NCBI GenBank assembly: GCA_037445775.1
Contig: JBBIJX010000005.1
Span: forward strand, 1 to 61,653
DNA from: Actinomycetota bacterium
GTDB taxonomy: Bacteria > Actinomycetota > Coriobacteriia > Anaerosomatales > PHET01
Reading direction: 5' to 3'
DNA length: 61,653 bases
In this document: positions 14,327-40,124 of the stretch, piece by piece
Layout of the letters: each line of letters begins with the position of its first letter
Numbering within the stretch: the first letter of the stretch is position 1
Notes under the pieces: model-generated
What the model saw: only the letters and a program-made list of their open reading frames with translations
Database searches by the model: none
What the model was told of the DNA's origin: nothing
Translations under genes and position numbers: made by a program

Positions 14327-14350
14327 GCAGGTCAGCGGGTGCGGTAGCGG
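14327..14350. repeat. 24-bp direct repeat, left copy (GCAGGTCAGCGGGTGCGGTAGCGG)
   Basis: Identical to 15707-15730; the two copies bracket the AAA-DUF4143 gene. Confidence 0.9.
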
Positions 14351-14416
14351 GCACGGAGAAGCGCTCCGTGATGCGCGCGGCGGCTGCGGGCTCGACCCGA
14401 GATTGTCGCGGGGCGC

Positions 14417-14460
14417 CATGATGTGGAATATTATTCACATCATGAGTAGATTCCACTCAT
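14417..14460. promoter_or_regulatory. AT-rich inverted repeats over the AAA-DUF4143 start (putative autoregulatory operator)
   Basis: CATGATGTG-N10-CACATCATG and ATGAGT-N7-ACTCAT. Confidence 0.5.
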
Positions 14461-15701
14461 ACGTTGAAGAAGTTCCTCCCCACGCCTACCGTCCGCGCTG
14501 GGCCGCGGGCGTCGTGAGGGCGCTCGCGGAGGACTTCCCGGTGACCGTGCTCACTGGCGCGAGGCAGGTGGGCAAGTCGACCCTCCTCAGACGCGAGGAG
14601 CCGTTCCGGCAGTGGCGCTATGTGACCCTCGACGACTTCGATGCGCTCGATGCCGCAATGACAGATCCCGCGTCGCTTTGGACCGGTACCCAGACCGTGG
14701 TTCTCGATGAAGTCCAGAAGGCGCCTGCTGTGCTCAGCGCGGTCAAGGCAGCGATCGACGGTGATCCCAGCCGACGGTTCGTCCTGTCGGGTTCGGCGAA
14801 CCTGTTGCTCATGAGCCGCGTGAGCGAGAGCCTCGCGGGACGAGCGGCCTACCTTGAGCTCGGTCCGCTTGCTCTGGGTGAGGAGGAGACGCGCGCAGCG
14901 CCTACCGTCCTCGCCGACATGCTCGCGGGCGTGGCACCTACGCGCGCACGGGCCACGTCTCACATCGATGCGCTGACCGTGGCACAGCGCGGCATGATGC
15001 CTCGGTTCCTCTCGCTTCCGGCGCGAGCCACAGCCTCGTGGTGGGATGGCTACGTCGCAACGTACCTCGAGCGCGATCTGCGCACACTCTCCCACGTCAG
15101 CTCGCTCTCGGAGTTCCGTCGGCTGATGGAGGTGCTCGCGCTGCGCTCAGGGCAGCTTCTCAACCGGTCAGAGGCGGCGCGCGACGTGGGCCTGAGCCAG
15201 GCGACCGCGCACCGCTATATCGGCCTTATGGAGGTCTCGGCCGTCCTCACCTTGCTGCGCGCGTTCGCGGGCAACAGGTCCAGCCGGCTCGTCAAGGCGC
15301 CAAAGCCCTACCTGTTCGACTCGGGGCTCGCGGCCTTCCTCTCGGGGCACTACGAGCATGCGTCGCTCTTGGGTTCGCGCGAGGCCGGGGCCGTGTTCGA
15401 GACCTTCGTCCTGCAGCATATTCGCGTGCTCTGCCAGCTCATGTCGCCGCGCCCGAAGGTGCACTACTGGCGCACGGTCGCGGGACGTGAGGTGGATGTG
15501 GTTGTCGAGCACGGCCGCTCGATCGTGGGGCTTGAGATCAAGCTCTCTGAGCGTGCGGGGTATCGCGACACCGCCGGGCTCCGGGCGTTCAAGGAGTCCA
15601 CGCCCGGCGTGTCGTGCTGTGCCGTGGTCTACTGTGGAACCGAGATCGCCGAACTCGCCGACGGAATCTTCGCCGTACCGTGGAGTGAGTTCGCCGGCTG
15701 A
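14442..15701 (+). CDS. AAA_14 ATPase with HTH and DUF4143 (PD-(D/E)XK-like) C-terminus
   Basis: LTGARQVGKST, VVLDEVQKAP, LSGS, ESLAGR, YLERDL, KAPKPYLFDSG, FETFV, YWRTVAGREVD..EIK; start 14442 or 14418. Confidence 0.9.
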   Translation: MSRFHSYVEEVPPHAYRPRWAAGVVRALAEDFPVTVLTGARQVGKSTLLRREEPFRQWRYVTLDDFDALDAAMTDPASLWTGTQTVVLDEVQKAPAVLSAVKAAIDGDPSRRFVLSGSANLLLMSRVSESLAGRAAYLELGPLALGEEETRAAPTVLADMLAGVAPTRARATSHIDALTVAQRGMMPRFLSLPARATASWWDGYVATYLERDLRTLSHVSSLSEFRRLMEVLALRSGQLLNRSEAARDVGLSQATAHRYIGLMEVSAVLTLLRAFAGNRSSRLVKAPKPYLFDSGLAAFLSGHYEHASLLGSREAGAVFETFVLQHIRVLCQLMSPRPKVHYWRTVAGREVDVVVEHGRSIVGLEIKLSERAGYRDTAGLRAFKESTPGVSCCAVVYCGTEIAELADGIFAVPWSEFAG

Positions 15702-15706
15702 GGTAA

Positions 15707-15730
15707 GCAGGTCAGCGGGTGCGGTAGCGG
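15707..15730. repeat. 24-bp direct repeat, right copy
   Basis: Identical to 14327-14350. Confidence 0.9.
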
Positions 15731-15748
15731 TTCGTGCGGAGTCGGCGG

Positions 15749-17122
15749 TCACCGCGTCCGGTACCGGGCGCGCCCCTCGGCGATGTAGTACTTGCGGTGA
15801 GGGTCGTTCGGTGAGGAGCCGACCTCGACGACGAGCCCCGCGTCCACGAGCGTGCGCAGCCGGGTCCGGGCTGAGCGCGGCGTCCGCGAGATCGCGGTGG
15901 CGACGTCGCTGGTCGAAAGGCCTCCGGAAGCGGCGAGCGCATCAAGTACCGCGGCGTCGAGCGGCTCGACCTCAGCGGTGTCGCGCGCGGCGCGCAGGGT
16001 GACCCGCACGAGCGAACCGAGCTCCTCGATCTCGGGCTCGGGCAGACCCGCCAACCGGCATGCCTCGATGGCGCGCGGGATGCCCGTCCCCCATTGCTCG
16101 ACGATGCCGAGTTCGCGCAGCACCCGGGCGATGACCCGGTTTCTGATCCGTGAGACGCCCGCCCGCAGATCGTCGACGGTGAGCCCCGGAAGCAGTAGCC
16201 CCGGACTGTCGACCTCGAGCCGGTCATCGAAGATCGCGATGCGTGTGCGCATGCCCGGAAGGGAGTAGTCCGCGTGCACAGACGCGTTGACGACGATCTC
16301 GCGGACGGCCTCCAGGGGATACTCCCAGACCTCCGCCCGGCGAACTCCACCGATCTCGTAGCGTCGCGCGAGATTGCGCCTGACGAACGCGAGTGCGCCC
16401 TCGATCGCGTGCGGAAGCGCCTCATCGAACGTGGCCGCGTCGGCGAATGTCGAGCGCCCCGTGCCTATGAAGCGCGCCGCCTCGATGACCGCATCGGGGA
16501 AGCGCTCGATCCTCCGCGCTCCGAACAGCAGCACACCTCCGACGGTAGGCACATCGCGACCGTCCGCCCGTGCGATGATGCGCAACGTCGTGAGCGCCCG
16601 GCGGTCGATCGTCCGCGACCCCGCGAACGACGCGCGCACGGCCGCAACGTCGATGGCCTCCGTCCCGGCATCGATGAGGGGTTCCTCGTCGAACGAGCGG
16701 CCGCCCGACGAGCGCCGCAGTTCGACGATCATCGCAGCATCGGCCCGCCTGTTGGTGGAGCCCACCCTGACGTAGACCCCGTCATGCGGTCCGAGGCGCT
16801 TGACGTTGTACGGACGCGAGCTGCCGGGGTGGACGCGAACGGCGAGGACGCTGCGATCCCGCCACGCGAGAACGTCGATCTCTGGCGCGATCCGCGGCTC
16901 GATCGAGTCAACCAAGATGCTTGCGATCCGCTCCTCGGCAGCGAGCGGGTCCGCAACGCCCACGACCTCGCGCGTCTTGTCCGCGACGCCTACAAGCACC
17001 ACGCCTCCGGCGGAGTTGGCGAACGCGACAACGGAGCGCACGATGCCGTCTGGCGAAGAAGCATCCTGCTTGAACTCGAGGGTCTTGCCCTCGTTGCGCG
17101 TAAGAAGTGTGGCGAGATCCAT
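15749..17122 (-). CDS. Schlafen/AlbA_2 + HATPase_c_4 + winged-HTH protein
   Basis: EGKTLEFKQ, VVAFANSAGGVVLVGVAD, YVRVGSTN, YPLEAVREIVVNASVHADY, DRLEVDSPG, RNRVIA, EQWGTGI, C-terminal HTH. Confidence 0.88.
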   Translation of the reverse strand: MDLATLLTRNEGKTLEFKQDASSPDGIVRSVVAFANSAGGVVLVGVADKTREVVGVADPLAAEERIASILVDSIEPRIAPEIDVLAWRDRSVLAVRVHPGSSRPYNVKRLGPHDGVYVRVGSTNRRADAAMIVELRRSSGGRSFDEEPLIDAGTEAIDVAAVRASFAGSRTIDRRALTTLRIIARADGRDVPTVGGVLLFGARRIERFPDAVIEAARFIGTGRSTFADAATFDEALPHAIEGALAFVRRNLARRYEIGGVRRAEVWEYPLEAVREIVVNASVHADYSLPGMRTRIAIFDDRLEVDSPGLLLPGLTVDDLRAGVSRIRNRVIARVLRELGIVEQWGTGIPRAIEACRLAGLPEPEIEELGSLVRVTLRAARDTAEVEPLDAAVLDALAASGGLSTSDVATAISRTPRSARTRLRTLVDAGLVVEVGSSPNDPHRKYYIAEGRARYRTR

Positions 17123-17180
17123 ACTCAGTAATCTACTAGGAAGTACTCAGAGACGCAACGCTTCCGTGTAGATTTCCTAC

Positions 17181-17208
17181 CGCCTACTCCTACTCGCCTA
17201 CTCCTACT
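17181..17208. repeat. Perfect 14-bp tandem duplication CGCCTACTCCTACT x2 containing the SDR stop codon
   Basis: 17181-17194 equals 17195-17208, plus a partial CCTAC at 17176. Confidence 0.8.
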
Positions 17209-18103
17209 TTGCCTCTTCCTGCTTCGCCTTCTGGGCTGCCCCACGCTGCTTGCGCGCCTTCTTGACGTCGCTGTCGACGATCGCGTAGAAGAGCTCGGGC
17301 AGAAGCCCCTTGAGCCGGAAATACAAGGCCAGCGTCGCGTCTGGGATGACCAAGTAGCGGCCGCGGTCGATTGCCTTCATCACACCGCGAGCGACCTGGT
17401 CGGCCGGAATCGGCTTGACCTTGCCGGAGATCACGTGAGTCTCGTGCGGGCGCAGCGTGTGCTCGTACGCGAGACCGGGCGTCTCGGTGTCCGGCGGGCA
17501 GACAACCGACACGCGCACGCCCTCGGGCTTCATCTCGCAGCGCAGCGCCTCGGTGAAGCCCATGACCGCGTACTTCGCTGCCGCGTAACTTGTGTAGCCG
17601 TAGTAGGCCAGGAAGCCGGCACCGGATGAGACGTTGATGATGTGTCCACTCCCGCGCTCGACCATGCGAGAGACGACGGCGCGGCACGGGTGGACGACGC
17701 TCCAGAAGCCGGATGACATGTTCGCCTCGAAATCGTCCAGTGGCATCGTGACGAACTCGCCAGGGATGATGACGCCCGCTGAGTTCACAAGAACGTCGGG
17801 AGCGAAGCCTTCGGCCGACAGTTCGGCGAAGACCGCCTCTGTGCGATCGAAAGAGCACAGGTCCGCGCTCTTCCAGACGACACGCTGCGCGCTGTCGGAC
17901 GCCACGGCACGGATCGCCTCGGCAGCCGCCTCGAGCCGGCCCGCATCCCGCGCGACGATCGCAACGTCGTAGCCGCGTCGCGCGAGCGCTTCGGCACACG
18001 CGAGCCCGATGCCGGAGCTTCCGCCGGTGACGACCGCGCACGGGCGCGCGCTCACGTACTCGCGCGTCTCTACGAGGAGCTTGCCGACGGCCACGGGCCG
18101 CAC
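17204..18103 (-). CDS. Short-chain dehydrogenase/reductase, KDSR-like
   Basis: VVTGGSSGIG, LVNSAG, NVSS, YTSYAAAKYA, CPPDTETPG; start may be GTG 18055. Confidence 0.88.
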   Translation of the reverse strand: MRPVAVGKLLVETREYVSARPCAVVTGGSSGIGLACAEALARRGYDVAIVARDAGRLEAAAEAIRAVASDSAQRVVWKSADLCSFDRTEAVFAELSAEGFAPDVLVNSAGVIIPGEFVTMPLDDFEANMSSGFWSVVHPCRAVVSRMVERGSGHIINVSSGAGFLAYYGYTSYAAAKYAVMGFTEALRCEMKPEGVRVSVVCPPDTETPGLAYEHTLRPHETHVISGKVKPIPADQVARGVMKAIDRGRYLVIPDATLALYFRLKGLLPELFYAIVDSDVKKARKQRGAAQKAKQEEAK

Positions 18104-19268: not shown

Positions 19269-19298
19269 GGCGGTCCTCCAACCGGGTCCGTGGGGGCG

Positions 19299-27980: not shown

Positions 27981-27981
27981 C

Positions 27982-29556: not shown

Positions 29557-29568
29557 AGGTCGAGTCCT

Positions 29569-29601
29569 CCGTAAACCCTTGGTGAGTGAGTTGGTTCACG
29601 G
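29569..29601. promoter_or_regulatory. BirA operator upstream of bioY
   Basis: CCGTAAACC-N15-GGTTCACGG fits the TGTAAACC-N14/15-GGTTTACA BirA box; the adjacent BirA has an HTH. Confidence 0.75.
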
Positions 29602-29640
29602 TAAGGCCCGAACGGGGGCGCGTCAAGACGCGGCCCGCTC

Positions 29641-30618
29641 CTACGTGAGCCGCTCCTCATCACCCGGCGTCTTCAGTGTGACCTCGCCGGACGCCACGGC
29701 GACCGTTGTCCCGTCGCGCTCGACGAGCAGCCGCCCCGCAGCGTCGATCCCGCGCGCCACCCCGCTCACACGCACCATCCCGAGCGCGTTTCTGACGACA
29801 ACGTGCTGTCCTGTCAGTACCGAGCGCGCCTCGTAGTCGCCCAGCAGCTGCGTGAACCCCTCCGCGAGCCACGCGGCGTAGACCTCTGTGATGCCGTCGA
29901 GGCACGACCCCGCAGCCTCTGCCACGCCGACCTTGGGGGCGTAGTCGTGCACGTAGGCGGCGTGCGGCAGCGGCTCATCCGGACGCACGACGTTGAGGCC
30001 GAAGCCCGCGACGACCCAGCTCACCAAGTCGCCCTCCGCACCCATCTCGATCAGGATGCCGGCAAGCTTGCGCCCCTCGGCCTTCACGTCGTTGGGCCAC
30101 TTCAGTCTTGTCGTCACGCCGATCGTCTCAAGCCCGCGCGCGATGCCGAGCGCGACCACGAGCGCGAGCGGGCCGGCCTCGACCGGCGCGACCGGCGGGC
30201 GCATCACGCACGACACGTACGCGCCGCCTTCGGGTGAGGCCCACGCGCGCCCGAACCTGCCGCGCCCGCCTTCCTGGCGCGCCGCGACGACTACCGTCCC
30301 CTCCTCCGCCCCAGCGAGAGCCAGCGCGCGCGCGTCGTCGTTGGTCGAGACGGTCGAGAGCCCGCCCTCGAACGTGCGCCAGTACGGGTTGTGCACGAAT
30401 CGCGCGACCTCCCAAGGGAAGGCGCGGTCCGGGGCCGAGACGAGCGTGTAGCCCGCACCGGGGGCAGCGTCGATAACGTAGCCAAGGTCACGGAGCGCGG
30501 CCACGTGCTTGCCCACCGCGACTCGGCTGACACCAAGCATGCCTGCGAGACGCTCGCCGCTCAGTCCGGCCGCCCCAGCGGCCCTGATCGCATCGAGAAC
30601 GTGCTGGCGCGTGTTCAC
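29641..30618 (-). CDS. birA: Bifunctional biotin ligase / repressor
   Basis: N-terminal HTH (SGERLAGMLGVSRVAVGKH), STND, QEGGRGRFGRAW, KWPND, KLAGILIE. Confidence 0.95.
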   Translation of the reverse strand: MNTRQHVLDAIRAAGAAGLSGERLAGMLGVSRVAVGKHVAALRDLGYVIDAAPGAGYTLVSAPDRAFPWEVARFVHNPYWRTFEGGLSTVSTNDDARALALAGAEEGTVVVAARQEGGRGRFGRAWASPEGGAYVSCVMRPPVAPVEAGPLALVVALGIARGLETIGVTTRLKWPNDVKAEGRKLAGILIEMGAEGDLVSWVVAGFGLNVVRPDEPLPHAAYVHDYAPKVGVAEAAGSCLDGITEVYAAWLAEGFTQLLGDYEARSVLTGQHVVVRNALGMVRVSGVARGIDAAGRLLVERDGTTVAVASGEVTLKTPGDEERLT

Positions 30619-31328
30619 GACCCTCCCTCGGCGTCTGAATCGCCAGCCGCTCCTTCGGCGAGGGCCTGCGCCGCGCGCCGCGCCTTGACGCGCTTGCGCG
30701 TGAGCCAGACCCCCAGGACGAACGAAACGAACACCGCGAACCCCACCCAGCTCGCACCCGTCGCAACGCGCAGCGCCCGGTCCATGTTCTCTCCCACGAA
30801 CCAGCCTATCACGCACATGAGCGTCGATTGCGTGATGGCCCCGAGGAGAGTGTGAAACTCGAACCAGAACACCGGCATGCGGACGGCGCCGGCCATCGCC
30901 GGGACGAAGTTCTTGGCGCCGGTCGCAAAGCGCGAGAAGAAGACCGTCTTCGAGCCGTCGACGTCGAAGTGCTCCTGGACCTCGTCGATTCCGGCGGGGT
31001 CGATGCGAAGGATGCGGCCGATGCGCGTCGCAGCCACACGTTCAGCGAGCGCGCGCACATTCTCGATACCCGCCTTGCGCCCCAGCAGGTAGCTCAGGTT
31101 GCTGCCCGCGACGGTCCCGAGAACCGAGGCGCCCCACACCAGCCACAGCTTCAGCCCGCCCGCCGAAGCCACAAAAGACGAGGCGATCACGACCATCTCA
31201 CCGGGCGTGAGCGAGCCCACCACGAAGACGTTCTCCGATACCGTGGCGGCGAACACGACAAGGTAGCCCGACTGCCCGAGCAGGGCGAGAAATGAGTCAA
31301 CGATCGCGATTCCGGTCTCAGGGACCAC
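30615..31328 (-). CDS. DedA family membrane protein
   Basis: E..FVVG..PGE, GSNLSYLLGR, VFFSRF, PAMAG. Confidence 0.85.
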   Translation of the reverse strand: MVPETGIAIVDSFLALLGQSGYLVVFAATVSENVFVVGSLTPGEMVVIASSFVASAGGLKLWLVWGASVLGTVAGSNLSYLLGRKAGIENVRALAERVAATRIGRILRIDPAGIDEVQEHFDVDGSKTVFFSRFATGAKNFVPAMAGAVRMPVFWFEFHTLLGAITQSTLMCVIGWFVGENMDRALRVATGASWVGFAVFVSFVLGVWLTRKRVKARRAAQALAEGAAGDSDAEGGS

Positions 31329-31364
31329 AGGTGCCTCCGTCGGCAGTTCGGAGCGGTGACGGCG

Positions 31365-32291
31365 TTACGCCTCATCCAATCCGAAGTCGACGGGAGGCGC
31401 AAGGGTGAGCGCGCTCGATGATACCCGGCCGACACCTGCGGCGCCGAGCGCCTGCAGCCGGTCGCGCGTGATGTTTCCGGACGCCTCGACGATAAGCGAG
31501 CGCCCCCGATCAGCCGCGGCGATCAAGCACCCGGTCGCGACGAGCGTCGTCGTGTCATCGTCCATGTTGTCGAGGAGCACGATGTCGGCTCCGTGGACGA
31601 CGGCCTCGAGCGCCTGGGCCTCAGTGTCCGCCTCGACCTCGACGAGAAGGCCCGGATTCGCCGCGTCGGCGCGCCCGATCGCCTCTGCGATCGTCGCGTG
31701 CCTGAGGTGGTTGTCCTTGATGAGCACCATGTCATGAAGGCCGTCCCTGTGGTTCGTGCCGCCGCCCACGCGCACCGCGTACTTCGATAGCGCCCTGAGG
31801 CCCGGATAGGTCTTGCGCGTGTCGCACACGGCGAGGCCGAGCGGTGCCGCCTCGACCCATCGCTTCGTCTCGGTCGCGATGCCGGACAGGACCATGAGGA
31901 AGTCAAGGGCGGTGCGCTCAGCGCTCAGCACGACCGCCGCGAGGCCGTCGACCTCAGCGACGGCGGTACCGGCCGAGACACGCGCACCCTCCGCGACCAG
32001 CGGGAAGAACTCGACCGGCTCGAACAGGCCTACCGCGGCCGACAGCGCCTCGAAGACCGCTGCTGCCACCGGCAGCCCCGCCACGACGCACTCCTCACGC
32101 GCGACAACGGTTCCGAAGAAGCGTGCATCGAAGCCCACCACCGGCGCCGTCGTCACGTCACGCTCGAGCAGCGCGAGCGACGGCTCCGAAGACGCGAGCG
32201 CTTCGCGCTCCATGCCTAGGTCCTCGGCAAGCGCGGCGGCCACGATCCCGGTCACATCGGGCAGTTCGAACACGGCAGCTCCCTCAGGCAC
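31365..32291 (-). CDS. nadC: Nicotinate-nucleotide diphosphorylase (carboxylating)
   Basis: ERTALDFL, DTRKTYPGLR, GGGTNHR, IKDNH, EVE, LLDN, EASG. Confidence 0.95.
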   Translation of the reverse strand: MPEGAAVFELPDVTGIVAAALAEDLGMEREALASSEPSLALLERDVTTAPVVGFDARFFGTVVAREECVVAGLPVAAAVFEALSAAVGLFEPVEFFPLVAEGARVSAGTAVAEVDGLAAVVLSAERTALDFLMVLSGIATETKRWVEAAPLGLAVCDTRKTYPGLRALSKYAVRVGGGTNHRDGLHDMVLIKDNHLRHATIAEAIGRADAANPGLLVEVEADTEAQALEAVVHGADIVLLDNMDDDTTTLVATGCLIAAADRGRSLIVEASGNITRDRLQALGAAGVGRVSSSALTLAPPVDFGLDEA

Positions 32292-32292
32292 G

Positions 32293-33918
32293 CTACGCCC
32301 CTGACGGCCGAACGGGCGCGAACCGCGGTTCGCATCCCCGTACGAAGATTGTGTGCCCTAGCCAGCGCTCGTCGTCACGCTCGCCGAAGTCGAGACGCAT
32401 GTGACAGCCCCTTGATTCGGTCCGAACCGCCGCCGCGCGCGCGATGAGGCCGGCAACGGTCACGAGGTTGGCCAGTTCGAGGTGCGCGACCGCATCGCCC
32501 GGCCTCGGTGTCGCGGCTTGGATCTCAGCCTCGATGAGCGCGAGCTCGGATGCGGCGCGGACGAGCCCGTCGGCGGTGCGGCCCATGCCGAGCAGCTCGC
32601 CAGCGACCGCGTGCAGGCGAGCGCGAGCGGAACCCTGCACCGCCGGTGGCGACGCGACGGCTTCGCCAACCGCGTCACTCACGTCGACGCCCCTCACAGC
32701 GGCCGCCACCGTCGCGCTGTCGAGCACGCGCGCGATGCGCCGCGAGAAGACGAGGCCCTCGAGCAGCGAGTTCGACGCGAGCCGATTCGCTCCGTGAAGC
32801 CCGCTTGCCGTGACTTCGCCCGACGCGAAGAGGCCCGGCACGCTCGTGCGCCCGTCGGCGTCCACGCGCACGCCGCCAACGAGGTAGTGGGCCGCCGGCG
32901 CTACGGGCACGAGGTCTGCCGAGAGGTCGTAGCCCGCCTCCGCGCAGGCACGCCAGATGTTCGGGAAGCGCGCCCGGAGGTGCGCTTCGCCCAGGTGGCG
33001 GGCGTCGAGCAGGACATTGCGGCGGCCGCAGCGAGTCATCACACTCTCGATCTCGCGGCTCACGACGTCACGGGGCGCGAGTTCGGCGAGCGGGTGGACG
33101 CCCGCCATGAAGCGCCGCTCGTCGCAGTCGAGCAGGTAGGCGCCCTCGCCCCTGAGCGCCTCGCTCACTAGGAAGCGCGGCGCGGCGTCGGAGTCGAGCG
33201 CCGTGGGGTGGAACTGGACGAACTCGAGGTCGCTCACCTCTGCGCCTGCGCGCCAGGCGGCCGCAACCCCGTCGCCGGTGGCGATGAGCGGGTTCGTCGT
33301 CACCGGGTAGACCTGGCCCGCCCCGCCCGTGGCAAGAACGACGGCGTCAGCGCGGAACGTCTCGACGTCACCTGTGCGCGTGTTGAGTACGACAGCGCCC
33401 CGGCACCGGCCGTCGTCGACGATGAGGTCAACGAGGAAGCGGTGCTCGAGCACGGGGATGCGCCCGCGCGAGATGAGCGAGGTGACGAGCGCGTCCTGGA
33501 TCGCGGCACCGGTCTTGTCGCCGGAGTGCAGCACGCGCGGCAGCGAGTGTCCGCCCTCGCGCGCGAGCGCCACCCCGCCTCCTTCGGCGAGGTCGAAGCG
33601 CACGCCGAAGCCGAGCAGTGACTCGAGCGCCTCGGGCGCCTCGCTCACGACAGCACGCACCACCGCTTCGTCACAGAGCCCCTGCCCCACCACGATAGTG
33701 TCCGCGACGTGCAGGTCGACCGAGTCCGCCTCACCCACAGCGCCCGCGATCCCGCCCTGCGCGTACCAAGTGCTGGTTTGCGCGAGCTCGCCCTTCGTGA
33801 CGAGCGTGACGGAACGGTCGCGCGAGCAGTGCAGCGCCGCGCTGAGCCCGGCGATCCCCGAGCCCACGACGAGGACGTCGGACTCCGTGACGCGCCCGCT
33901 GCCGGCGTTCTCAGCCAA
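32293..33918 (-). CDS. nadB: L-aspartate oxidase
   Basis: GSGIAGL, AQGGIA, REGGHS, QFHPT, SEALRGEG, LAPRD, LHGANRLASNSLLE. Confidence 0.95.
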   Translation of the reverse strand: MAENAGSGRVTESDVLVVGSGIAGLSAALHCSRDRSVTLVTKGELAQTSTWYAQGGIAGAVGEADSVDLHVADTIVVGQGLCDEAVVRAVVSEAPEALESLLGFGVRFDLAEGGGVALAREGGHSLPRVLHSGDKTGAAIQDALVTSLISRGRIPVLEHRFLVDLIVDDGRCRGAVVLNTRTGDVETFRADAVVLATGGAGQVYPVTTNPLIATGDGVAAAWRAGAEVSDLEFVQFHPTALDSDAAPRFLVSEALRGEGAYLLDCDERRFMAGVHPLAELAPRDVVSREIESVMTRCGRRNVLLDARHLGEAHLRARFPNIWRACAEAGYDLSADLVPVAPAAHYLVGGVRVDADGRTSVPGLFASGEVTASGLHGANRLASNSLLEGLVFSRRIARVLDSATVAAAVRGVDVSDAVGEAVASPPAVQGSARARLHAVAGELLGMGRTADGLVRAASELALIEAEIQAATPRPGDAVAHLELANLVTVAGLIARAAAVRTESRGCHMRLDFGERDDERWLGHTIFVRGCEPRFAPVRPSGA

Positions 33919-34834
33919 TCGCGACCATCCGCTCGACCGCCGTGCGCGCCCGGGCGGCGACGTCCGCGTCGACGTCGACGGCGTACTGGTCGTAGAGGAG
34001 CGCGTCGCGCACCTTCACGAGCGTGGTGAGCTTCATGTTCGGGCACAGCATGCGCGGGGCGAGCTCGTGGAAGACCTTGCCCGGCGCGGCCTTCTCGAGC
34101 GCATGGACGAGGCCCGTCTCAGTCACCACGACGAACTCGCGGGCGGGGTCGGCCGCCGCGAACGACAGCATCTGCGACGTGGACAGCACGGCGTCGGCGA
34201 GGTCGACGACGTCCGGCCGGCACTCGGGATGCGCCATGACGCGCGCGTGCGGGTGCGCCGCGCGTGCCGCCGCCACCTGTTCGGCGGTGACCTCGTCGTG
34301 CGTGGGACACCAGCCGTCCCAGAGGATCACATCGACGGCTGGCAGCGACCGCGCTACCCAGCTGCCCAGGTTGCGGTCCGGAGCGAACAGGATGCGATCG
34401 GAGCCGAGCGAGCGAACGACCGCGACCGCGTTGGCGCTCGTCACGCAGACGTCCGAGTGCGCTTTGACCTCGGCCGACGAGTTCACGTAGGTCACGACCG
34501 GCACGCCCGGGTGCTCACGTCGCCACGCTTTGAGCGCCTCGCCGGTGATCATGTCCGCCATGGGACATCCGGCGCGCGGCTCAGGGATCAGCACGCGCTT
34601 GTCAGGCGCGAGGATCTTCGCCGTCTCTGCCATGAAGTGCACGCCCGCGAAGACGATCTTCGACGAGCGTGTCGCGGCGGCCTGGCGCGAGAGGCCGAGC
34701 GAGTCGCCGGTGAACGTGGCGACGTCCTGGACCTCGGCCCGCTGGTAGTTGTGCGCGATGACGACCGCGTCGCGCTCCTTCGCGAGCGTGCGGATCTCCT
34801 CGGAGAGCGCGGCGAGCGTCGCGGCGTCAGGCAC
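33911..34834 (-). CDS. nadA: Quinolinate synthase
   Basis: AHNYQ, GDSL, GVHFMAE, GCPMAD, YVNS, CPTH, HPEC, CPNMK; GTG start 34834. Confidence 0.95.
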   Translation of the reverse strand: MPDAATLAALSEEIRTLAKERDAVVIAHNYQRAEVQDVATFTGDSLGLSRQAAATRSSKIVFAGVHFMAETAKILAPDKRVLIPEPRAGCPMADMITGEALKAWRREHPGVPVVTYVNSSAEVKAHSDVCVTSANAVAVVRSLGSDRILFAPDRNLGSWVARSLPAVDVILWDGWCPTHDEVTAEQVAAARAAHPHARVMAHPECRPDVVDLADAVLSTSQMLSFAAADPAREFVVVTETGLVHALEKAAPGKVFHELAPRMLCPNMKLTTLVKVRDALLYDQYAVDVDADVAARARTAVERMVAIG

Positions 34835-35696
34835 GGGAGACCCCCCGGGGAACGAGCGCGCAGTTGTCGATGAGGCGGGTCGTGCCCACGCGGCCGGCGA
34901 TAAGCGCGCGGGCGGGCGCGTCCTCGACGCGCTCGAGCGGCTCGAGCGTGACCGGGTCGACGACCGCGGCATAGTCGAGCGCGACACCGCCGCGTTCAGC
35001 GACTGTGGCGCGCATCGCCTCTTCAAGCATCCGGGCGCCGGTCTCGCCTGACGCGAGCGCGGTCTCGGCGACGCTTAGGGCGGCAGGGATCGCAAGCGCC
35101 GCCGCTCTGCCCTCGCGCGTGAGGTAGGCGTTGCGGCTCGACAGCGCGAGGCCGTCGTCTTCGCGCACCGTTGGTCCGGCTGCGATCGTGCAACCCAGAT
35201 CGAGATCGCGCGCGATCGTCTCGACGATGCGCAGCTGCTGGTAGTCCTTCTCGCCGAAGAAGGCCACGTCCGGACGGACGATCGACAGGAGCTTCGCCAC
35301 TACGGTGGCGACCCCGTTGAAGTGGCCCGGGCGCGCTTCGCCTTCCCAGCGGCGCGCGAGTGGCCCTGGATCGACGGTGACGGCGGTGCCGGGCGCATAC
35401 ATCTCGCCCGCGCTCGGCGTGAAGGCGATCTCGACGCCCTCGGCGGCCAGGTGCGCGAGATCATCGTCGAGACGCCGCGGGTAGGTGGCGTAGTCCTCGC
35501 CCGGGGCGAACTGCGTGGGGTTGACGAAGATCGACACGACGACGAGGTCGGCGCGCGCGCATGCGGCGTGCACGAGCGAGAGGTGCCCGGCGTGCAGCGC
35601 CCCCATCGTGGGGACGAAGCCGATTCGCTTGGCGTCGCGCCGGGCTGCCGTGACCGCCGCGCGCACCTCGTCCTTGCTGTGCAACCGCTCGATCAC
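34827..35696 (-). CDS. panC: Pantoate--beta-alanine ligase
   Basis: VPTMGALHAGH, SIFVNPTQF, RPGHF, FGEKDYQQ, GLALSSRN, RLIDN. Confidence 0.96.
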   Translation of the reverse strand: MIERLHSKDEVRAAVTAARRDAKRIGFVPTMGALHAGHLSLVHAACARADLVVVSIFVNPTQFAPGEDYATYPRRLDDDLAHLAAEGVEIAFTPSAGEMYAPGTAVTVDPGPLARRWEGEARPGHFNGVATVVAKLLSIVRPDVAFFGEKDYQQLRIVETIARDLDLGCTIAAGPTVREDDGLALSSRNAYLTREGRAAALAIPAALSVAETALASGETGARMLEEAMRATVAERGGVALDYAAVVDPVTLEPLERVEDAPARALIAGRVGTTRLIDNCALVPRGVSRA

Positions 35697-36586
35697 GCGC
35701 TCCCACCACCGCGGGCGGAGGTGCTCGCGGCTTCCGCCTCGGCCACGACCGCGGCGTCGACGTGGGTCATCTGCGCCTCGGTGGGAAACTCGCCAGCACG
35801 CACTTCGCCAGCGTAGGTGGCGACCGCGTCGGCGATGACGGCGGAGACGTTCGCATAGCGCTTCGCGTGCCTAGGCAGGAAGTCACCCAGTCCAACGACA
35901 TCGTGGAACACCTGTACCTGCCCGTCGCAGCCGCCGCCGGCGCCGATGCCTATGGTGGGCACATACAACCGCGCGGTCACGCGGCGCGCGAGCTCGGCCG
36001 GGATGCATTCGAGCACGACGGCGAACGCACCGGCCTGCGCGAGCGCGAGGCAGTCGTCGATGAGCTTCGCAGCCGCGGCCGCGTCCTTCGCCTGCGTCGA
36101 GTAGCCGCCCAGCGCGTGCACGGACTGCGGCGTGAGGCCCACATGCCCCATCACCGGGATGCCGGCCTCGACGAGTCCGCGCGTGAGAGCGAGCGTGCCG
36201 GCGGCGGCGCCTTCGAGCTTGACAGCTTGGGCACCACCCTCGGCGACAAGACGGGCGGCGTTACGCATACCCTCCTCGTAGGAGGCCTGGTAGCTCATGA
36301 ACGGCATGTCCGCGACGACGAGCGCGCGCTTCACCGCTCTCGTGACCGCCGAGGTCGCCCGGACGACGTCGTCGACGGTCACCGGCAACGTGCTGTCGTG
36401 CCCGAGTACCGTCATTCCAAGCGAATCGCCCACGAGAACCGCATCCACGCCGGCACTCTCGACGAGGCGCGCCGTAGGGAAGTCATACGCGGTTATCATC
36501 ACGATGGGGCGTGCGGAATGCTTCATGGCCGTCAGGGCCGAAGCGGTAACGCGCGGCCCGGGGGCCTGCGCAGGATGAGCGCTCAT
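35693..36586 (-). CDS. panB: 3-methyl-2-oxobutanoate hydroxymethyltransferase
   Basis: MITAYD, LVGDSLG, ADMPF, VKLEG, GHVGLTPQ, IGIGAG..CDGQV. Confidence 0.96.
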   Translation of the reverse strand: MSAHPAQAPGPRVTASALTAMKHSARPIVMITAYDFPTARLVESAGVDAVLVGDSLGMTVLGHDSTLPVTVDDVVRATSAVTRAVKRALVVADMPFMSYQASYEEGMRNAARLVAEGGAQAVKLEGAAAGTLALTRGLVEAGIPVMGHVGLTPQSVHALGGYSTQAKDAAAAAKLIDDCLALAQAGAFAVVLECIPAELARRVTARLYVPTIGIGAGGGCDGQVQVFHDVVGLGDFLPRHAKRYANVSAVIADAVATYAGEVRAGEFPTEAQMTHVDAAVVAEAEAASTSARGGGSA

Positions 36587-36714
36587 GGCGCCTCCTTCCA
36601 CGGTCCGTCGTCGCAGCCCGCTGCCTGCGGGTCCACGCGACCCTCCGACGAGGGAGTGCGAGTATACACCGTCATCACCGGCGCCTGCGCGCGGCGTCTC
36701 CGCTGCGCGAATCC

Positions 36715-37506
36715 TCAGAGTGCGGGCGGGCCCTCATCGAAGTTCGGGGGCGCCGCGTCGATGGCGGCCATCAGTTCGCGCGCGCGTCCGACGCGGTCCG
36801 CAGGCACGAGCAACCGGTAAGTGACGGGCATGCCGAACGGGTCCATGTCCATGCCCGGCTCATGCGGCTCCCAAGCGACCGGGATGCCCTCGTCAACGAG
36901 CACCTCCCGTTTGAGCTGCAGTGACGCGTCGAAGCCCACGATGCGGTCGGCCGTCGTCTGGCTCGTCGCCACCTCAACCCACTCGACCGGCTCGATAGGC
37001 ACGTCGTGAATCGCACCGACGTCTGGAATGGGTCCCGCATCGCGCAGGACGTCGCCTTGGGTCGCCTCGGAACGGCGCAGGTGGTGCCCGTTGGGCAGCG
37101 TGATACGCGGTGCGATCTCGAGCAGCGGCGTGACCACGAAGTCACGCTCGGTGAGTCCGGGATGCGGCAGTGTGAGCTCGGTGGTGTTCCACTCCTCGTC
37201 GTCGTAGAGCAAGAGGTCGAGGTCGATGACGCGCGGCCCCTGGTCGCGCTCGCGCACCCGTCCCATGGCGGACTCGATGTCGAGCAGGTGCGCCATGAGC
37301 GCGTCGGCCATGAGCGACGTCGTCACCTGGGCGGCGGCGTTGAGAAAGAGCGGCTGGTCCTCGACGTAGGCCGGCACGGATTCGTACGCGTTCGAGACCT
37401 GTTCGACGTGCGTCTCGGGCAGGTGCGCGACCGCCTCGACGGCGCTCGCGAGATTGCCCATGCGGTCACCCAGGTTACTGCCGAACCCAATGTACGCGGT
37501 CGCCAT
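36715..37506 (-). CDS. folK: HPPK with a C-terminal extra domain
   Basis: AYIGFGSNLGD, FLNA, GPRVIDLDLL, LPHP..ERDFV; about 100-aa extension. Confidence 0.93.
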   Translation of the reverse strand: MATAYIGFGSNLGDRMGNLASAVEAVAHLPETHVEQVSNAYESVPAYVEDQPLFLNAAAQVTTSLMADALMAHLLDIESAMGRVRERDQGPRVIDLDLLLYDDEEWNTTELTLPHPGLTERDFVVTPLLEIAPRITLPNGHHLRRSEATQGDVLRDAGPIPDVGAIHDVPIEPVEWVEVATSQTTADRIVGFDASLQLKREVLVDEGIPVAWEPHEPGMDMDPFGMPVTYRLLVPADRVGRARELMAAIDAAPPNFDEGPPAL

Positions 37507-37572
37507 GGGAATCGCCCTCCCCGAGTTCGGAGACGTTGTGAAACCGTCCGTAAGAGAGGTATTCCCGCGAGT

Positions 37573-37590
37573 TCAGTAGTGATACCTGAG
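37573..37590. repeat. 18-bp direct repeat, left copy (TCAGTAGTGATACCTGAG); copy of the yoeB 3' end
   Basis: Identical to 39870-39887, the last five codons plus stop of yoeB (LRYHY*). Confidence 0.9.
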
Positions 37591-37599
37591 AGATCGCGA

Positions 37600-37624
37600 A
37601 CGAGTGCAGACGACGAGTGCAGAC
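37600..37624. repeat. Tandem duplication ACGAGTGCAGAC x2 (13-bp period)
   Basis: 37600-37611 and 37613-37624. Confidence 0.7.
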
Positions 37625-37677
37625 CGCTTCACGCGCGGAAACGCCGAAGGGGCTCGCGGAGCGGCCGCTGTGAGGTA

Positions 37678-37706
37678 GTGACAACGAACACACGTTCGCA
37701 TATCAT
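37678..37706 (+). promoter_or_regulatory. Sigma70 promoter of the R-M operon with a LexA (SOS) box in the spacer
   Basis: GTGACA-17 nt-TATCAT; the spacer holds CGAAC-ACAC-GTTCG (37685-37698), the Gram-positive/actinobacterial SOS box. Confidence 0.75.
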
Positions 37707-37784
37707 GAGGGTATCGCAGATGCAGGCTCGATGTATGCTTGCCGGAGACTGATCGGTGCCAACACGCGGAGACAGGGGTGCGCC

Positions 37785-38738
37785 TTGGCTTTGAGCTCGA
37801 TTGAGATCTGCGCCGGCGGCGGCGGTCAGGCACTCGGCCTCGAGGCTGCCGGTTTCGATCACTCTGCAGTCATCGAGATCGAGGCGCCCGCCTGCGACAC
37901 CCTCCGGTTGAATCGCCCGGGCTGGAACGTCATCGAGGGAGATATCCGTCAATTCGATGCGTCTGGCTACGAGGGCATCGATCTGCTGGCGGGAGGCGTT
38001 CCCTGTCCGCCATTCTCGAAGGCGGGCCGACAGCTGGGCGCTGATGATGAGCGCGACCTGTTCCCTGAGGCAATCAGGCTCGTCGACGAGTGCCGGCCCA
38101 AGGCGGTCATGCTCGAGAACGTCCGTGGACTGCTGGACGCGGTCTTCGACGACTACCGTCACAAAGTGGAGCACCAGCTCCGCGACCTGGGCTACGTTCC
38201 CGGCTGGCGACTTCTGAACGCGTCGGACTACGGCGTCTCGCAACTTCGTCCGCGCGTCGTCTTCGTGGGTATTCGCAAGGACCTGTCTGATGTGTTCGCG
38301 TGGCCAGTGCCAGCCGGAGAGACTCCTCCGACAGTCGGCGAGCTGCTCGGGGATCTCATGGGCGAGAATGGCTGGAAGGGCGTAGATGCGTGGCGATCCC
38401 GCGCCGACTCCATCGCCCCCACACTCGTTGGCGGCTCCAAGAAGCACGGCGGTCCCGATCTTGGGCCCACACGCGCGAAGCGCGCTTGGGAGACGCTTGG
38501 TGTCGACGGACGAGGAATCGCTGATGCTGCGCCTGAGCGCGATTTCGTTGGCAGGCCTCGGCTCACCACCCGGATGACTGCGCGAGTCCAGGGATTCCCC
38601 GACCACTGGGTCTTCGCTGGCCGGAAGACAGCCGCGTATCGCCAGATCGGCAACGCGTTCCCGCCGCCGGTCGCTGCGGCCGTAGCGCGGCAGATCGCAG
38701 TCGCACTGTCCGCCAGGCGCTCATTCCGGGTGGCGTGA
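37785..38738 (+). CDS. DNA (cytosine-5) methyltransferase, M.NgoMIV-like (probably GCCGGC)
   Basis: EICAGGGG, GGVPCPPFS, ENVRG, QLRPR, IAPTLVGGSKKHGGPDLGPTR, YRQIGNAFPP; closely resembles recalled M.NgoMIV; TTG start after AGGGG. Confidence 0.93.
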   Translation: MALSSIEICAGGGGQALGLEAAGFDHSAVIEIEAPACDTLRLNRPGWNVIEGDIRQFDASGYEGIDLLAGGVPCPPFSKAGRQLGADDERDLFPEAIRLVDECRPKAVMLENVRGLLDAVFDDYRHKVEHQLRDLGYVPGWRLLNASDYGVSQLRPRVVFVGIRKDLSDVFAWPVPAGETPPTVGELLGDLMGENGWKGVDAWRSRADSIAPTLVGGSKKHGGPDLGPTRAKRAWETLGVDGRGIADAAPERDFVGRPRLTTRMTARVQGFPDHWVFAGRKTAAYRQIGNAFPPPVAAAVARQIAVALSARRSFRVA

Positions 38739-39601
38739 TGTACGCACGGGCTGAGTTCGCTGAGGCGCGTGCGGACTTCCATACCGCTTTGCTGCAGTCG
38801 TGTCTCACCATCGATCCGCAGGGCCGTCCGAGCAACAGTGACAGCTCGAATCAGGCTAGTGTGGCTATCGCGAAGGGCATCGCTAACCGGCTCAAGGCGG
38901 AGACCGTCGGAGAACGGGCCGCTGGCCAGACCTCGGGCAATCAGTTCGAGGCTGTCTGCGCGGACTTCGTCCGCGCAACGTTTCCCAGACTCGGACATCT
39001 CCGCCCAGGCACCTGGAGTGTTCACCATGTAAGAGGCCGCAACCGGCTGGAGATCGCGCGCTACGAGCAGTACTCGCATCTCGTGGCGCTCGACAAGGCC
39101 GCCCGCAACGATCCCGACCTTGCGGCGTCGCTTGGCAGTGACTACACGATCACGCCGGACGTCGTCATCGTCCGTAACCTTGAAGAGGATGCGGTCATCA
39201 ACGCCCCGGCGATGCTCGTGGATGGTGGCGTGGCAACGCTGGCGAGTCTCCGGAAGTCCAATGGCGGCCTGCCCCTCTTGCATGCAAGCATCTCCTGCAA
39301 GTGGACGATTCGCAGCGACCGCGCTCAGAATGCCCGGTCAGAGGCTCTGAATCTAGTCCGCAATCGCAAGGGTTCCCTGCCCCATATCGTCGTCGTCACG
39401 GCGGAGCCCACGCCAAGCAGACTCGCGTCCGTTGCCCTTGGCACCGGAGACATTGACTGCGTCTACCATTTCGCGCTGTATGAACTCCAGGAGACTCTGG
39501 AGGAGCTGAACATGACTGATGCTGCAGACATGCTCGCGGTCATGGTAGACGGGGACCGTCTCAAAGACATCTCCGACCTCCCCCTCGATCTCGCCGTCTA
39601 G
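38738..39601 (+). CDS. Type II restriction endonuclease, NgoMIV family
   Basis: GQTSGNQFE, GSDYTITPD, HASISCKWTIRSDRAQNARSE, RNRKG, KDISDLPLDLAV; TGATG coupling to the MTase. Confidence 0.93.
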   Translation: MYARAEFAEARADFHTALLQSCLTIDPQGRPSNSDSSNQASVAIAKGIANRLKAETVGERAAGQTSGNQFEAVCADFVRATFPRLGHLRPGTWSVHHVRGRNRLEIARYEQYSHLVALDKAARNDPDLAASLGSDYTITPDVVIVRNLEEDAVINAPAMLVDGGVATLASLRKSNGGLPLLHASISCKWTIRSDRAQNARSEALNLVRNRKGSLPHIVVVTAEPTPSRLASVALGTGDIDCVYHFALYELQETLEELNMTDAADMLAVMVDGDRLKDISDLPLDLAV

Positions 39602-39608
39602 GACGCAA

Positions 39609-39776
39609 ATGGGAATCAGCCGCAGCGAGAACATGCGGCGCATCAGGAGCCGCGATACCGCACCTGAGCTTGTGGTTCGCGCGGCACTGCGGCAGCTTGG
39701 CCATGTTGGCTGGGAGTGCGAACTGGGGGATGACACCACGCTCCGGAGACGCCTGGACGAGTTCGTTCGGAGATAG
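39609..39776 (+). pseudogene. vsr: Very-short-patch repair endonuclease with an in-frame internal deletion (55 aa)
   Basis: MGISRSENMRRIRSRDTAPELVVRAALRQLGHVG joined directly to WECELGDD...; the central PGxPD and FVHGCFWH regions are absent. Confidence 0.8.
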
Positions 39777-39869
39777 CGGGCGGGCGCCTCATCCAGCGTA
39801 TCGCCCTCCGGCGTCAATCTGGCTCGGCGTCCTCATGGATGCCCAACGCACATGGGAATCAGGTTCACA

Positions 39870-40124
39870 TCAGTAGTGATACCTGAGCTGGGCGATGTAG
39901 AGGGTGTCGCCCTCGACCTTGTAGACGAGGCGGTGGGTGTCGTCGATGCGCCTGGACCAGTAGCCCGCGAGCGCGTGCCGCAACGGTTCGGGCTTGCCCG
40001 GCCCCTCGAACGGCACGCGCCGAATGTCGCGGATGAGACTGTTGACGCGCTGCAGGACCTTGCGGTCGGTCTTCTGCCAGTAGAGGTAGTCCTCCCAAGC
40101 CGCCTCGTCGAAGACGGTCTTCAT
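39870..40124 (-). CDS. yoeB: Txe/YoeB toxin
   Basis: AWEDYLYWQKTD, GPGKPEPL, WSRRIDDTHRLVY, RYHY. Confidence 0.95.
   Translation of the reverse strand: MKTVFDEAAWEDYLYWQKTDRKVLQRVNSLIRDIRRVPFEGPGKPEPLRHALAGYWSRRIDDTHRLVYKVEGDTLYIAQLRYHY

Follow-up and report, generated by a model that had tools for sequence, protein, structure and literature searches.

How do small defence-type cassettes come to lie within conserved housekeeping gene rows, bracketed by exact direct repeats and with no recombinase gene beside them? The question is raised by contig C5 (61,653 bp) of the metagenome-assembled genome G000 (1.8 Mb, 110 contigs, approximately 66% G+C), the whole of which is analysed here and is termed the window. 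The sequencing runs that contain the window sequence are labelled as subsurface metagenome. In the window, Pfam matches define two conserved minus-strand rows, hemC-hemA followed after a gap by SDR-ccsA-ccm genes, and folE-folP followed after a gap by folK-panB-panC-nadABC. Each row has accessory genes in its gap. Between hemA and the SDR gene lies a cassette with a single AAA_14-DUF4143 gene (cassette a). Between folK and a yefM-yoeB toxin-antitoxin pair lies a cassette with an NgoMIV-type restriction-modification (R-M) operon (cassette b). Both cassettes are very probably genuine insertions that duplicated their target. The full statement, that foreign segments are inserted into housekeeping spacers with long target-site duplication and as self-contained expression units, is made with moderate confidence.

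In the exact-word scan, cassette (a) is bracketed by an exact 24-bp direct repeat, GCAGGTCAGCGGGTGCGGTAGCGG, at 14327-14350 and 15707-15730, and cassette (b) by an exact 18-bp direct repeat, TCAGTAGTGATACCTGAG, at 37573-37590 and 39870-39887. The 24-bp repeat stretches to 30 nt at 93% identity. Each word has two copies in the entire genome and none besides those at the flanks, and both pairs fall exactly at breaks in synteny with relatives. The initial annotation of the window described these two repeats as unrelated in sequence, and they share no core. It also described the cargo as inverted relative to the neighbouring genes and as nested behind another accessory gene. Both features are present in the two cassettes, with the AlbA_2 gene as the earlier arrival in (a) and the yefM-yoeB pair in (b). 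As it reported, no recombinase is found in the window, and no integrase or transposase gene is present in the Pfam search. Its statement that each repeat contains a stop codon is correct for the 18-bp repeat, which carries the yoeB stop, and not for the 24-bp repeat, in which the TGA is the stop of no called gene (the AlbA_2 stop is at 15749-15751).

The R-M cassette (37591-39869, plus strand, 2279 bp) has a lower G+C content than its flanks. It contains a C5 DNA methylase gene (37731-38738, plus strand; PF00145, E 1.4e-69; PADLOC MTase_II) and an NgoMIV-family endonuclease gene (38735-39601, plus strand; PF09015, E 7.5e-124; PADLOC REase_II), which overlap by 4 bp. The adjacent C5-methylase and NgoMIV_restric endonuclease genes fit a type II R-M system of the NgoMIV family, with predicted enzyme activity. 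They are followed by a vsr remnant of 52 codons (39609-39767, plus strand) that matches only positions 8-35 of the Vsr model. The remnant is read as internally deleted because a relative (G026:C124) has approximately 232 bp more inside vsr. The left 18-bp copy starts 6 bp past the end of the conserved folK-upstream motif GGTATTCCC, with folK at 36715-37506 (minus strand, Pfam). The right copy consists of the stop and the last five codons (LRYHY) of yoeB. The yefM-yoeB pair (39870-40372, minus strand, Pfam) is itself an earlier insertion in the spacer between folK and folP (40425-41288, minus strand, Pfam), and the search for repeats flanking it yields none beyond 8-10 bp. In relatives, folP and folK are approximately 100 bp apart with neither the toxin-antitoxin nor the R-M genes in all five loci.

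The empty form of the R-M site is present in a natural population. Logan contigs of four runs of one study were placed on positions 27000-46000 of the window. In run X2, one contig (record 11) spans 28603-40088 with the R-M cassette in place. In run X4, a 3945-bp contig (record 30; depth 5.65; 53 differences over 3406 bp) covers 34167-37572 and continues directly with 39870-40408. The joint from 37572 to 39870 skips 2297 bases, so that the cassette is omitted exactly, and the 18 letters fit either side. Depth in X4 over 37778-39679 is 0-0.22. A close strain in X4 thus has an empty R-M site with a single 18-mer, in which yefM-yoeB is followed by the folK upstream region; the toxin-antitoxin pair is retained in this strain without the R-M cassette. 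Logan assemblies use a word length of 31 letters, as does the run index. As the 18-mer is shorter than the 31-letter index words, a collapse during assembly is an unlikely origin of the joint. The X4 allele could be ancestral or could have arisen by precise loss between the repeats, and the 18-mer is the junction either way. Database matches to the 18-mer number six in genome contigs and one in viral contigs; three of the seven are yoeB ends in Gammaproteobacteria and the others are unrelated.

Cassette (a) (14351-15706, plus strand, 1356 bp) contains one AAA_14 + DUF4143 gene, which starts at an ATG at 14442 or a TTG at 14403 and runs to the stop at 15701 (plus strand; Pfam, PADLOC PDC-S01). 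The ATG is preceded by an AT-rich palindrome, GATGTGGAATATTATTCACATC, at 14420-14441, and only 5 bp separate the stop from the right 24-bp copy. The protein matches PF13173 (AAA_14, E 3.8e-23) and PF13635 (DUF4143, E 9.8e-38), and matches the PADLOC model PDLC04790 (PDC-S01) over nearly its full length (E 9.8e-110). A single AAA_14 + DUF4143 protein that matches this model fits the definition of PDC-S01, for which a defence function is predicted. The left 24-bp copy, a putative target-site duplication, lies in the spacer approximately 224 bp upstream of the start of hemA (12709-14103, minus strand, Pfam). The right copy is 18 bp from the stop of a gene for an SLFN_AlbA_2 + HATPase_c_4 + HTH protein (15749-17122, minus strand, Pfam), an earlier accessory insertion between hemA and the SDR gene (17204-18103, minus strand, Pfam; stop codon 17204-17206). 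No repeat beyond 8-10 bp is found in the search of the flanks of the AlbA_2 cassette. Under an iid model, 4e-4 exact repeats of at least 24 bp within 8 kb are expected per genome.

In relatives, DNA homology to the region of cassette (a) is present in 40 of 41 genomes (G000 included); it spans hemA and its conserved upstream region and ends at approximately 14290, just short of the left repeat. By tblastn, at the level of synteny, the DUF4143 gene is missing next to hemA in all nine loci of relatives, and the SDR gene directly adjoins hemA in seven of the nine. At one locus (L005), 777 bp separate ccsA from hemA, and both the AlbA_2 and the DUF4143 gene are missing. Another (G012) has the order hemA-AlbA_2-SDR without a DUF4143 gene and is the sole AlbA_2 carrier among the nine loci. 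The G012 arrangement indicates that AlbA_2 was inserted first and that the DUF4143 gene was added behind it later.

A parallel event with a homologous cassette occurs in another genus of the same order. In genome G130 (G130:C23, locus L063), a DUF4143 gene 50% identical to that of the window is enclosed by exact 24-bp copies at a distance of 1352 bp. The 24-mer in G130, GCGCGAGTGCTCGCCGAGGGGTAG, equals the last seven codons and the stop of an epimerase-type gene, and a paralogue 5.8 kb away that also ends with this word is a UDP-GlcNAc 2-epimerase. In the sister species (G131:C342), both flanks (left, 93% identity; right, 86%) are on a single contig, separated by one diverged copy of the word (18/24) and without a gene between them. 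On this alignment, G131 is an empty site for the homologous DUF4143 cassette, and the G130 case is the decisive one. The duplication in G130 is younger than the split of the two species because the two G130 copies are identical to each other. The window and G130 cassettes share a common layout of repeat, short leader, AT-rich palindrome (GTGTGAATGGATATCATTCACAC in G130), ATG, gene, 5-12 bp and repeat. The expectation of empty sites that followed from the initial annotation is therefore borne out for the R-M cassette in X4 and for this parallel event in G130/G131, and extends to the window's own DUF4143 cassette only by analogy.

The DUF4143 family is patchy and multi-copy, being present in 77 of 146 genomes of the order with, for example, four copies in G000, 13 in G016 and 10 in G130. 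Bracketing repeats were surveyed by blastn-short self-comparison of 118 loci with 117 genes, with strong repeats defined by E < 1e-6. Strong bracketing repeats are present around five of the 117 genes, including the window's own (L033, 24 bp, exact). The other four are the G130 case (L063, 24 bp, exact), an exact repeat of 38 bp in G014:C45 (L045) that consists of the 5' half of tRNA-Arg(CCT), and 48-bp repeats at 87.5% identity in G012:C5 (L034) and at 89.6% in G025:C21 (L119). Of 36 full-length metagenome relatives, 31 have usable flanks and one of these has a strong repeat (L186, 37 bp at 89%). By the same rule, three of 1070 control genes in G000 are bracketed, namely the window's own gene and two tandem paralogues. 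Fisher's test of DUF4143 genes against controls (5/147 vs 2/1069) gives p = 4e-4, with control genes drawn from one genome only and with related genomes that are not independent. Several candidates are excluded from the count. A 16-bp repeat in G004:C11 and further bracketing matches of 15-19 bp and of 23 bp (91%) do not exceed chance, as 24 of 400 random windows have such matches, and an 18-bp repeat at L104 and a 71-bp repeat at L113 are rejected as duplications, being located within paralogous flanking genes and within tandem paralogues, respectively.

Repeats of the same kind bracket other cargo in the DUF4143 neighbourhoods of relatives. An mqsR-mqsA pair in G130:C58, located right after an ABC-transporter gene, has a 47-bp bracketing repeat (46/47), and a cassette with a DUF6036 nucleotidyltransferase gene in G127:C5 is bracketed by a 22-bp exact repeat. 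No clean empty site for the mqsRA, tRNA-flanked or DUF6036 cassettes is found in the relatives searched. Longer, imperfect repeats also occur. In G014, a 367-bp direct repeat at 91% identity, consisting of the 5' end of an AlbA_2 gene and its upstream region, is present at the end of contig C50 (L071, 4130-4496) and the start of contig C88 (L072, 872-1237). It flanks a DUF4143 pseudogene with an in-frame TAG that is split over the two contigs, the adjacency of which is inferred. In G088, a 371-bp repeat at 88% contains the 3' end of purB, and a 124-bp repeat at 91% is located inside DUF1016 genes.

Other observations concern the relatives of the cassettes and the wider distribution of DUF4143 genes. 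The best relatives found for the two cassettes are only 65% (protein) and 73% (DNA) identical. In G130, two DUF4143 copies (L096, 2863-4210; L097, 2413-3760) are 99.56% identical over a gene-sized 1348 bp. Each adjoins a paralogous ABC-transporter gene (82% identity), and the pair reflects either recent movement or gene conversion. One DUF4143 subfamily (L045, L159, L162, L048, L030 and L158) has 82-94% protein identity across families of the order and, at 6 of 17 loci, is a neighbour of a tRNA gene, which in three cases is that of tRNA-Arg(CCT). Such a distribution suggests recent horizontal spread with a preference for the side of tRNA genes. The same hemA|SDR spacer contains a distantly related DUF4143 gene (25% identity), without flanking repeats, in G037 (L133, G037:C1:1071800-1078400), the complete genome of a member of another family. 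The hemA|SDR spacer is a recurrent landing place, since G037 also has a DUF4143 gene there. AlbA_2/HATPase_c_4 homologues adjoin DUF4143 genes in several genomes, namely at L044 (G001:C10), L104 (G080:C92) and L039 (G014:C88), and in G001 the two genes are convergent, as in the window. An AlbA_2 homologue is near a DUF4143 gene at only 7 of 118 loci, which rules out an obligate pair; the proximity reflects either a common island or a loose functional link. Within the last codons of the window's DUF4143 gene, 8 bp from the right repeat, is the word GCCGGC (15694-15699), which we take to be the NgoMIV recognition sequence. Its position is probably a coincidence in a GC-rich genome.

Across the genome, the two cassettes stand out by the placement of their repeats and not by the number of repeats. 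The window alone has 173 exact pairs of at least 12 bp in the exact-word scan, and pairs of 12-14 bp consequently mean little by themselves. In the whole of G000, isolated exact repeats of 14-17 bp at 0.3-8 kb have a density equal to that of the 8-32 kb band, and exact direct repeats of 12-17 bp within 8 kb show no excess over farther distance bands. Repeats of at least 18 bp show a modest excess, with 11 isolated pairs against approximately 3.9 expected from the distance-band controls (Poisson p = 0.002), so that 18 bp by length alone is near chance genome-wide. The 18-bp repeat of cassette (b) is nevertheless read as a real scar because of its placement and the empty site. Isolated pairs of at least 16 bp are nearly all within coding sequence; only the two window pairs (24 and 18 bp) sit outside coding interiors and bracket whole cassettes. 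Two more pairs that scored as intergenic are rejected, as they represent genes missed by a crude gene caller or a repeat region. A tiled genome search with mismatches allowed returns 29 matches, almost all of them paralogue pairs. The initial annotation anticipated an enrichment of repeats at stop codons, and none is present in G000. Support for the pattern thus comes from two cases and not from a statistical excess.

Two shorter repeats that were grouped with these cassettes behave differently. The 14-bp unit, present in two tandem copies at 17181-17208 (starts 17181 and 17195), covers the SDR stop as described in the initial annotation and consists of CCTAC-containing heptamers, each with a TAG. 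It is rejected as a cassette boundary, as it is a micro-tandem array at the junction and bounds nothing. In G012, the inverted repeat upstream of AlbA_2, which is also present in the window, abuts the SDR stop directly, and the two 14-bp units are extra in G000. The array may have arisen by slippage or as a filled-in staggered break without cargo. The 12-bp word GTATTCTAGCGC at 1544-1555 and 3660-3671, outside the range 14327-39887 first annotated for the pattern, is a candidate third case around two epimerase genes (1565-2722 and 2599-3600, minus strand). Of the only two occurrences of the word in the genome, the right-hand one spans the stop codon of a Wzy_C gene. None of the 19 relatives with a match to the query has a counterpart of the region from 1.5 to 6.6 kb next to hemL. 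A 12-bp match is reached in 39 of 300 random controls; the repeat is at or near chance, and a chance match is the likeliest reading.

Four other explanations of the 24- and 18-bp repeats are considered. An origin by chance, or as artefacts in the assembly of a metagenome-derived genome, is consistent with the background level of 12-14-bp repeats and with the expected number of 18-bp pairs within 8 kb, which are not rare. It is difficult to reconcile with the expectation for a 24-mer, with the position of both pairs exactly at synteny breaks, and with independent assemblies that hold the occupied (X2) and empty (X4) forms; as both repeats are shorter than the 31-letter words, a contig jump needs reads that span the joint. 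For cassettes (a) and (b) this explanation is largely refuted, and we consider it extremely improbable. The repeats could also be att sites of recombinases encoded elsewhere and acting in trans, such as an integrase on contig C49 or Xer-type enzymes. G000 has three tyrosine recombinase genes and two rve genes, all on other contigs, and no link between the rve genes and the cassettes is found. Duplicated gene 3' ends are typical of integrase-borne islands, and both the 38-bp exact repeat of the tRNA-Arg(CCT) 5' half around the G014:C45 cassette and the tRNA-adjoining loci of its subfamily would fit such an origin. Set against this are the lack of a common core among the 24-mer, the 18-mer and the repeats of relatives, the restriction of each window word to its two flanks, the lack of a recombinase on the 61-kb contig, and the profile search of G000, which yields no serine recombinase and no Cas1 (PF01867). 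Two of the three tyrosine recombinases are of XerC/D size (open frames of 313 and 326 aa), although no comparison of the repeats with dif was made. Action of a recombinase in trans is very unlikely.

Under a Campbell-type single crossover, a circular cassette with one copy of the site, excised elsewhere, would integrate by short homology and recreate the repeats. The X4 allele shows that a form without the cassette exists, and the long imperfect repeats in G014, G088 and the DUF1016 genes resemble hybrids of donor and recipient. In G130:C6, the repeat copy beyond the cassette is closer to a paralogous locus (92%) than to its own partner (approximately 80%). Lengths of 18-24 bp are short for RecA-dependent recombination. 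The model leaves unexplained the first arrival at a site whose sequence the cassette does not carry, as the repeat words of the window are mutually unrelated and unique in the genome. The 24-mer of (a) has no match in JGI metagenome contigs or in viral contigs, and the 24/24 identity of the G130 copies, with six differences of 24 in the sister species, fits a fresh duplication. A single crossover is rather unlikely to account for the two cassettes. Finally, the DUF4143 ATPase-nuclease gene could be an autonomous single-gene mobile element whose own PD-(D/E)XK product cuts approximately 24 bp apart, with the R-M and toxin-antitoxin cases being separate. We know of no PD-(D/E)XK protein that catalyses strand transfer. 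The DUF4143 cassettes lack common termini and inverted repeats, as judged from direct inspection of the ends and from the inverted-repeat scan of the two window cassettes, in which none of the 25 longest pairs per cassette (of 41 and 77 in all) joins the two ends. Nor is the duplication length constant, with 37, 38 and 48 bp in other bracketing repeats. A strong repeat is present at only 6 of 148 genes, and the R-M, mqsRA and DUF6036 cassettes bear the same signature without a DUF4143 gene inside. Features that speak for self-mobilisation are the two independent events with a duplication of exactly 24 bp each, the tight limits of the cassettes (33-91 bp ahead of the ATG, 5-12 bp beyond the stop), the high and patchy copy number across the order, the different DUF4143 gene in the same spacer in G037, and the 99.56% identical pair in G130, which gene conversion can also explain given the paralogous ABC-transporter genes beside it. 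DUF4143 is listed as a PD-(D/E)XK family in the available part of PMC3424549. Self-mobilisation is judged to be distinctly unlikely.

Insertion with target duplication, the preferred explanation for both cassettes, could proceed as follows. Two breaks 18-24 nt from each other would open the target, either in opposite strands or in two sister duplexes. Foreign DNA in linear or linearised form would then be joined to both ends by end-joining-type illegitimate recombination, and gap filling would duplicate the stretch between the breakpoints. Where the insertion is in the last codons of a gene, the long duplication would rebuild the 3' end of that gene (yoeB here, the epimerase-type gene in G130). 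Operons would remain undamaged and the insertion would survive selection because the long duplication rebuilds the 3' end of the gene that is hit. The location of the surviving insertions at gene ends may thus reflect survivorship and not targeting. Cargo that is hard to lose (R-M, toxin-antitoxin) or that is a break-provoking nuclease-ATPase may allow insertions to persist and to stack at tolerant spacers, and the repeats would also permit precise loss via recombination between them. A candidate machinery is encoded in G000, in which Ku and an adjacent LigD-like ATP-dependent ligase (within a 929-aa open frame) are located on contig C26. Ku is also beside a LigD-like ligase in four of the five other repeat-bearing genomes. 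The end-joining or staggered-break route in particular is proposed only tentatively. A bolder reading is unlikely: in prokaryotes, defence islets would be built from nuclease- or addiction-type genes or operons (PDC-S01, type II R-M, toxin-antitoxin pairs) at gene 3' ends without a recombinase, with 18-50-bp duplications that regenerate the ends and later allow clean excision, and in its boldest form the PDC-S01 protein would make a staggered break of approximately 24 bp and mobilise its own gene.

Several results weigh against the preferred explanation. The initial annotation proposed a recurring addition of defence islets at gene 3' ends that leaves operons undamaged. Cassettes (a) and (b) are insertions of such islets into conserved operon spacers, and most DUF4143 and R-M homologues have no repeat. 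No strong repeat is present at 112 of the 117 DUF4143 genes, the three other DUF4143 genes of G000 have no bracketing repeat, and R-M homologue loci in five other genomes (71-73% DNA identity) have no flanking repeat of more than 12 bp within 1.5-kb flanks in any of the five. The restriction of the Fisher comparison to controls from one genome, and the dependence among related genomes, reduce its force. The X4 allele could be a precise deletion and not a never-occupied site. For cassette (a), the orthologous spacer in G012 is not alignable to that of the window, the 24-mer is absent from the metagenome contigs, and a target duplication is suggested by analogy with the G130/G131 parallel. The longer imperfect repeats (367, 371 and 124 bp) fit homology-driven integration or an old event better than a fresh duplication, and the 48-bp repeats at 88-90%, also imperfect, fit homology-driven integration better. 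Both 24-bp DUF4143 cassettes end 5-12 bp past the stop, which is tighter than for random captured fragments, and the length of exactly 24 bp in two independent duplications is a hint of a defined enzyme rather than of random breaks. The events are best documented in G130, and in this genome (89% complete) no Ku is found.

Insertions of this kind have in part been described before. Furuta et al. (2010; PMC2853133), in the part of the article available, report the insertion of R-M genes with long, variable target duplications and no other mobile element in several phyla, including the actinobacterium Clavibacter, and cite an earlier original report in H. pylori. The same part notes a higher frequency of flanking repeats around R-M genes than around the average gene and proposes the involvement of double-strand breakage, which is common to R-M systems, without giving an enzyme. 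The suggestion in the initial annotation of an undescribed system is therefore too strong, and cassette (b) is a shorter example of this published type of insertion. As in those insertions, the cassettes lack a transposase or integrase, no other mobile-element gene is present in or beside them, the target duplication is direct, and the sequence of the repeat varies by case. The segment is missing in a relative with both flanks aligned, at the level of synteny only for the DUF4143 cassette, and flanking repeats with a single copy at the empty site are found for the R-M cassette and for the G130/G131 DUF4143 event. The screen in the available part of PMC2853133 took duplications of more than 30 bp with both R and M genes, and its table lists 46-47 bp and longer. 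The duplications here measure 18 and 24 bp, R-M genes are absent from (a), the cargo is a single AAA_14-DUF4143 gene or, in relatives, an mqsRA pair or a DUF6036 cassette in place of R-M genes, and each window insertion lies in an operon spacer behind an accessory gene that arrived earlier. These cut-offs are screening thresholds and not part of a mechanism, and the process behind (a) and (b) may be the same. What appears to be new is the cargo (PDC-S01/DUF4143 and toxin-antitoxin pairs) and the shorter duplications of 18-24 bp. No report of a long-target-duplication insertion for toxin-antitoxin pairs is found in the literature searched. Likewise, in the openly searchable literature, with many subscription papers and supplements outside its reach, no report is found of target duplication around, or movement of, DUF4143, PDC-S01 or COG1373 genes.

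The cassettes share some features with other mobile elements. IS1634 is an insertion sequence with long, variable target duplications. IS1630 has target duplications of 19-26 bp (PMC2853133, Figure 1 legend). Both resemble the cassettes in their variable duplications of approximately 20 bp or longer and differ from them in having a transposase and terminal inverted repeats, the two hallmarks of DNA transposons, insertion sequences and miniature inverted-repeat transposable elements, which are not found for the cassettes. Like integrase-borne islands, the cassettes duplicate a gene end, leave the target intact and pile up at one spot. Unlike such islands, they have neither an integrase in or next to them nor a common att core, they are only 1.4-2.3 kb long, and in the tRNA case, from a relative, it is the 5' half and not the 3' end of the tRNA that is duplicated. 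Integron cassettes are small units of one to a few genes that are added serially at one place. Unlike these, no integron-type integrase is near the cassettes and the orientation of the cargo is not uniform, although attC sites were not searched for. Casposons have a Cas1-family integrase and target duplications of 14-15 bp; unlike casposons, the cassettes are in a genome without a PF01867 match and have no inverted repeats that join their two ends among the 25 longest pairs for each (of 41 and 77).

Three further features of the window and genome lie apart from the two cassettes. The region upstream of hemA (14104-14290) is conserved at the DNA level in at least nine relatives and consists of a long GC-rich stretch that looks capable of forming hairpins, with a promoter-like end (...CTGAACGCTCGGATTCTAAC). 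It has no Rfam match, a tRNA being the sole Rfam match over the window, and it may be a leader or regulatory element of hemA that has not been described. The region 55945-57842, located between a two-component system and ftsH, has a lower G+C content (0.60-0.61) and contains an AbiEi_2-type antitoxin gene and a gene of 274 aa without a Pfam match. It is probably a further accessory islet, for which the search for flanking repeats gives none of more than 10 bp. At the start of the contig (bases 1-124), the first 105-124 bases are found again at the ends of contigs C70 (100%) and C1 (95%), as a repeat common to assembly breaks.

The two window cassettes are clean, recent examples, with base-exact junctions, of the growth of defence islands without a visible integrase or transposase. 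The long duplication offers a simple account of how an insertion can land harmlessly inside the last codons of operon genes. For the R-M cassette, occupied and empty alleles coexist in a natural population, which makes the route testable. The scar known from R-M systems is now also present around DUF4143/PDC-S01 genes and, in relatives, around toxin-antitoxin pairs. PDC-S01 ranks fourth in frequency among the defence candidates across prokaryotes in the available part of the survey in PMC12988326, where it has an ATPase + PD-(D/E)XK architecture, shared by the DUF4143 protein of the window, and awaits validation. DUF4143 is mentioned in passing as a REase-like domain in the available part of one preprint (bioRxiv 10.64898/2026.10.19.760177), and COG1373 is among the genes co-shared between genera in that of PMC10782964. 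The abundance of PDC-S01 might partly reflect selfish spread rather than defence. If the boldest form of the bolder reading were true, this common defence candidate would in part be a new kind of selfish single-gene transposable element.

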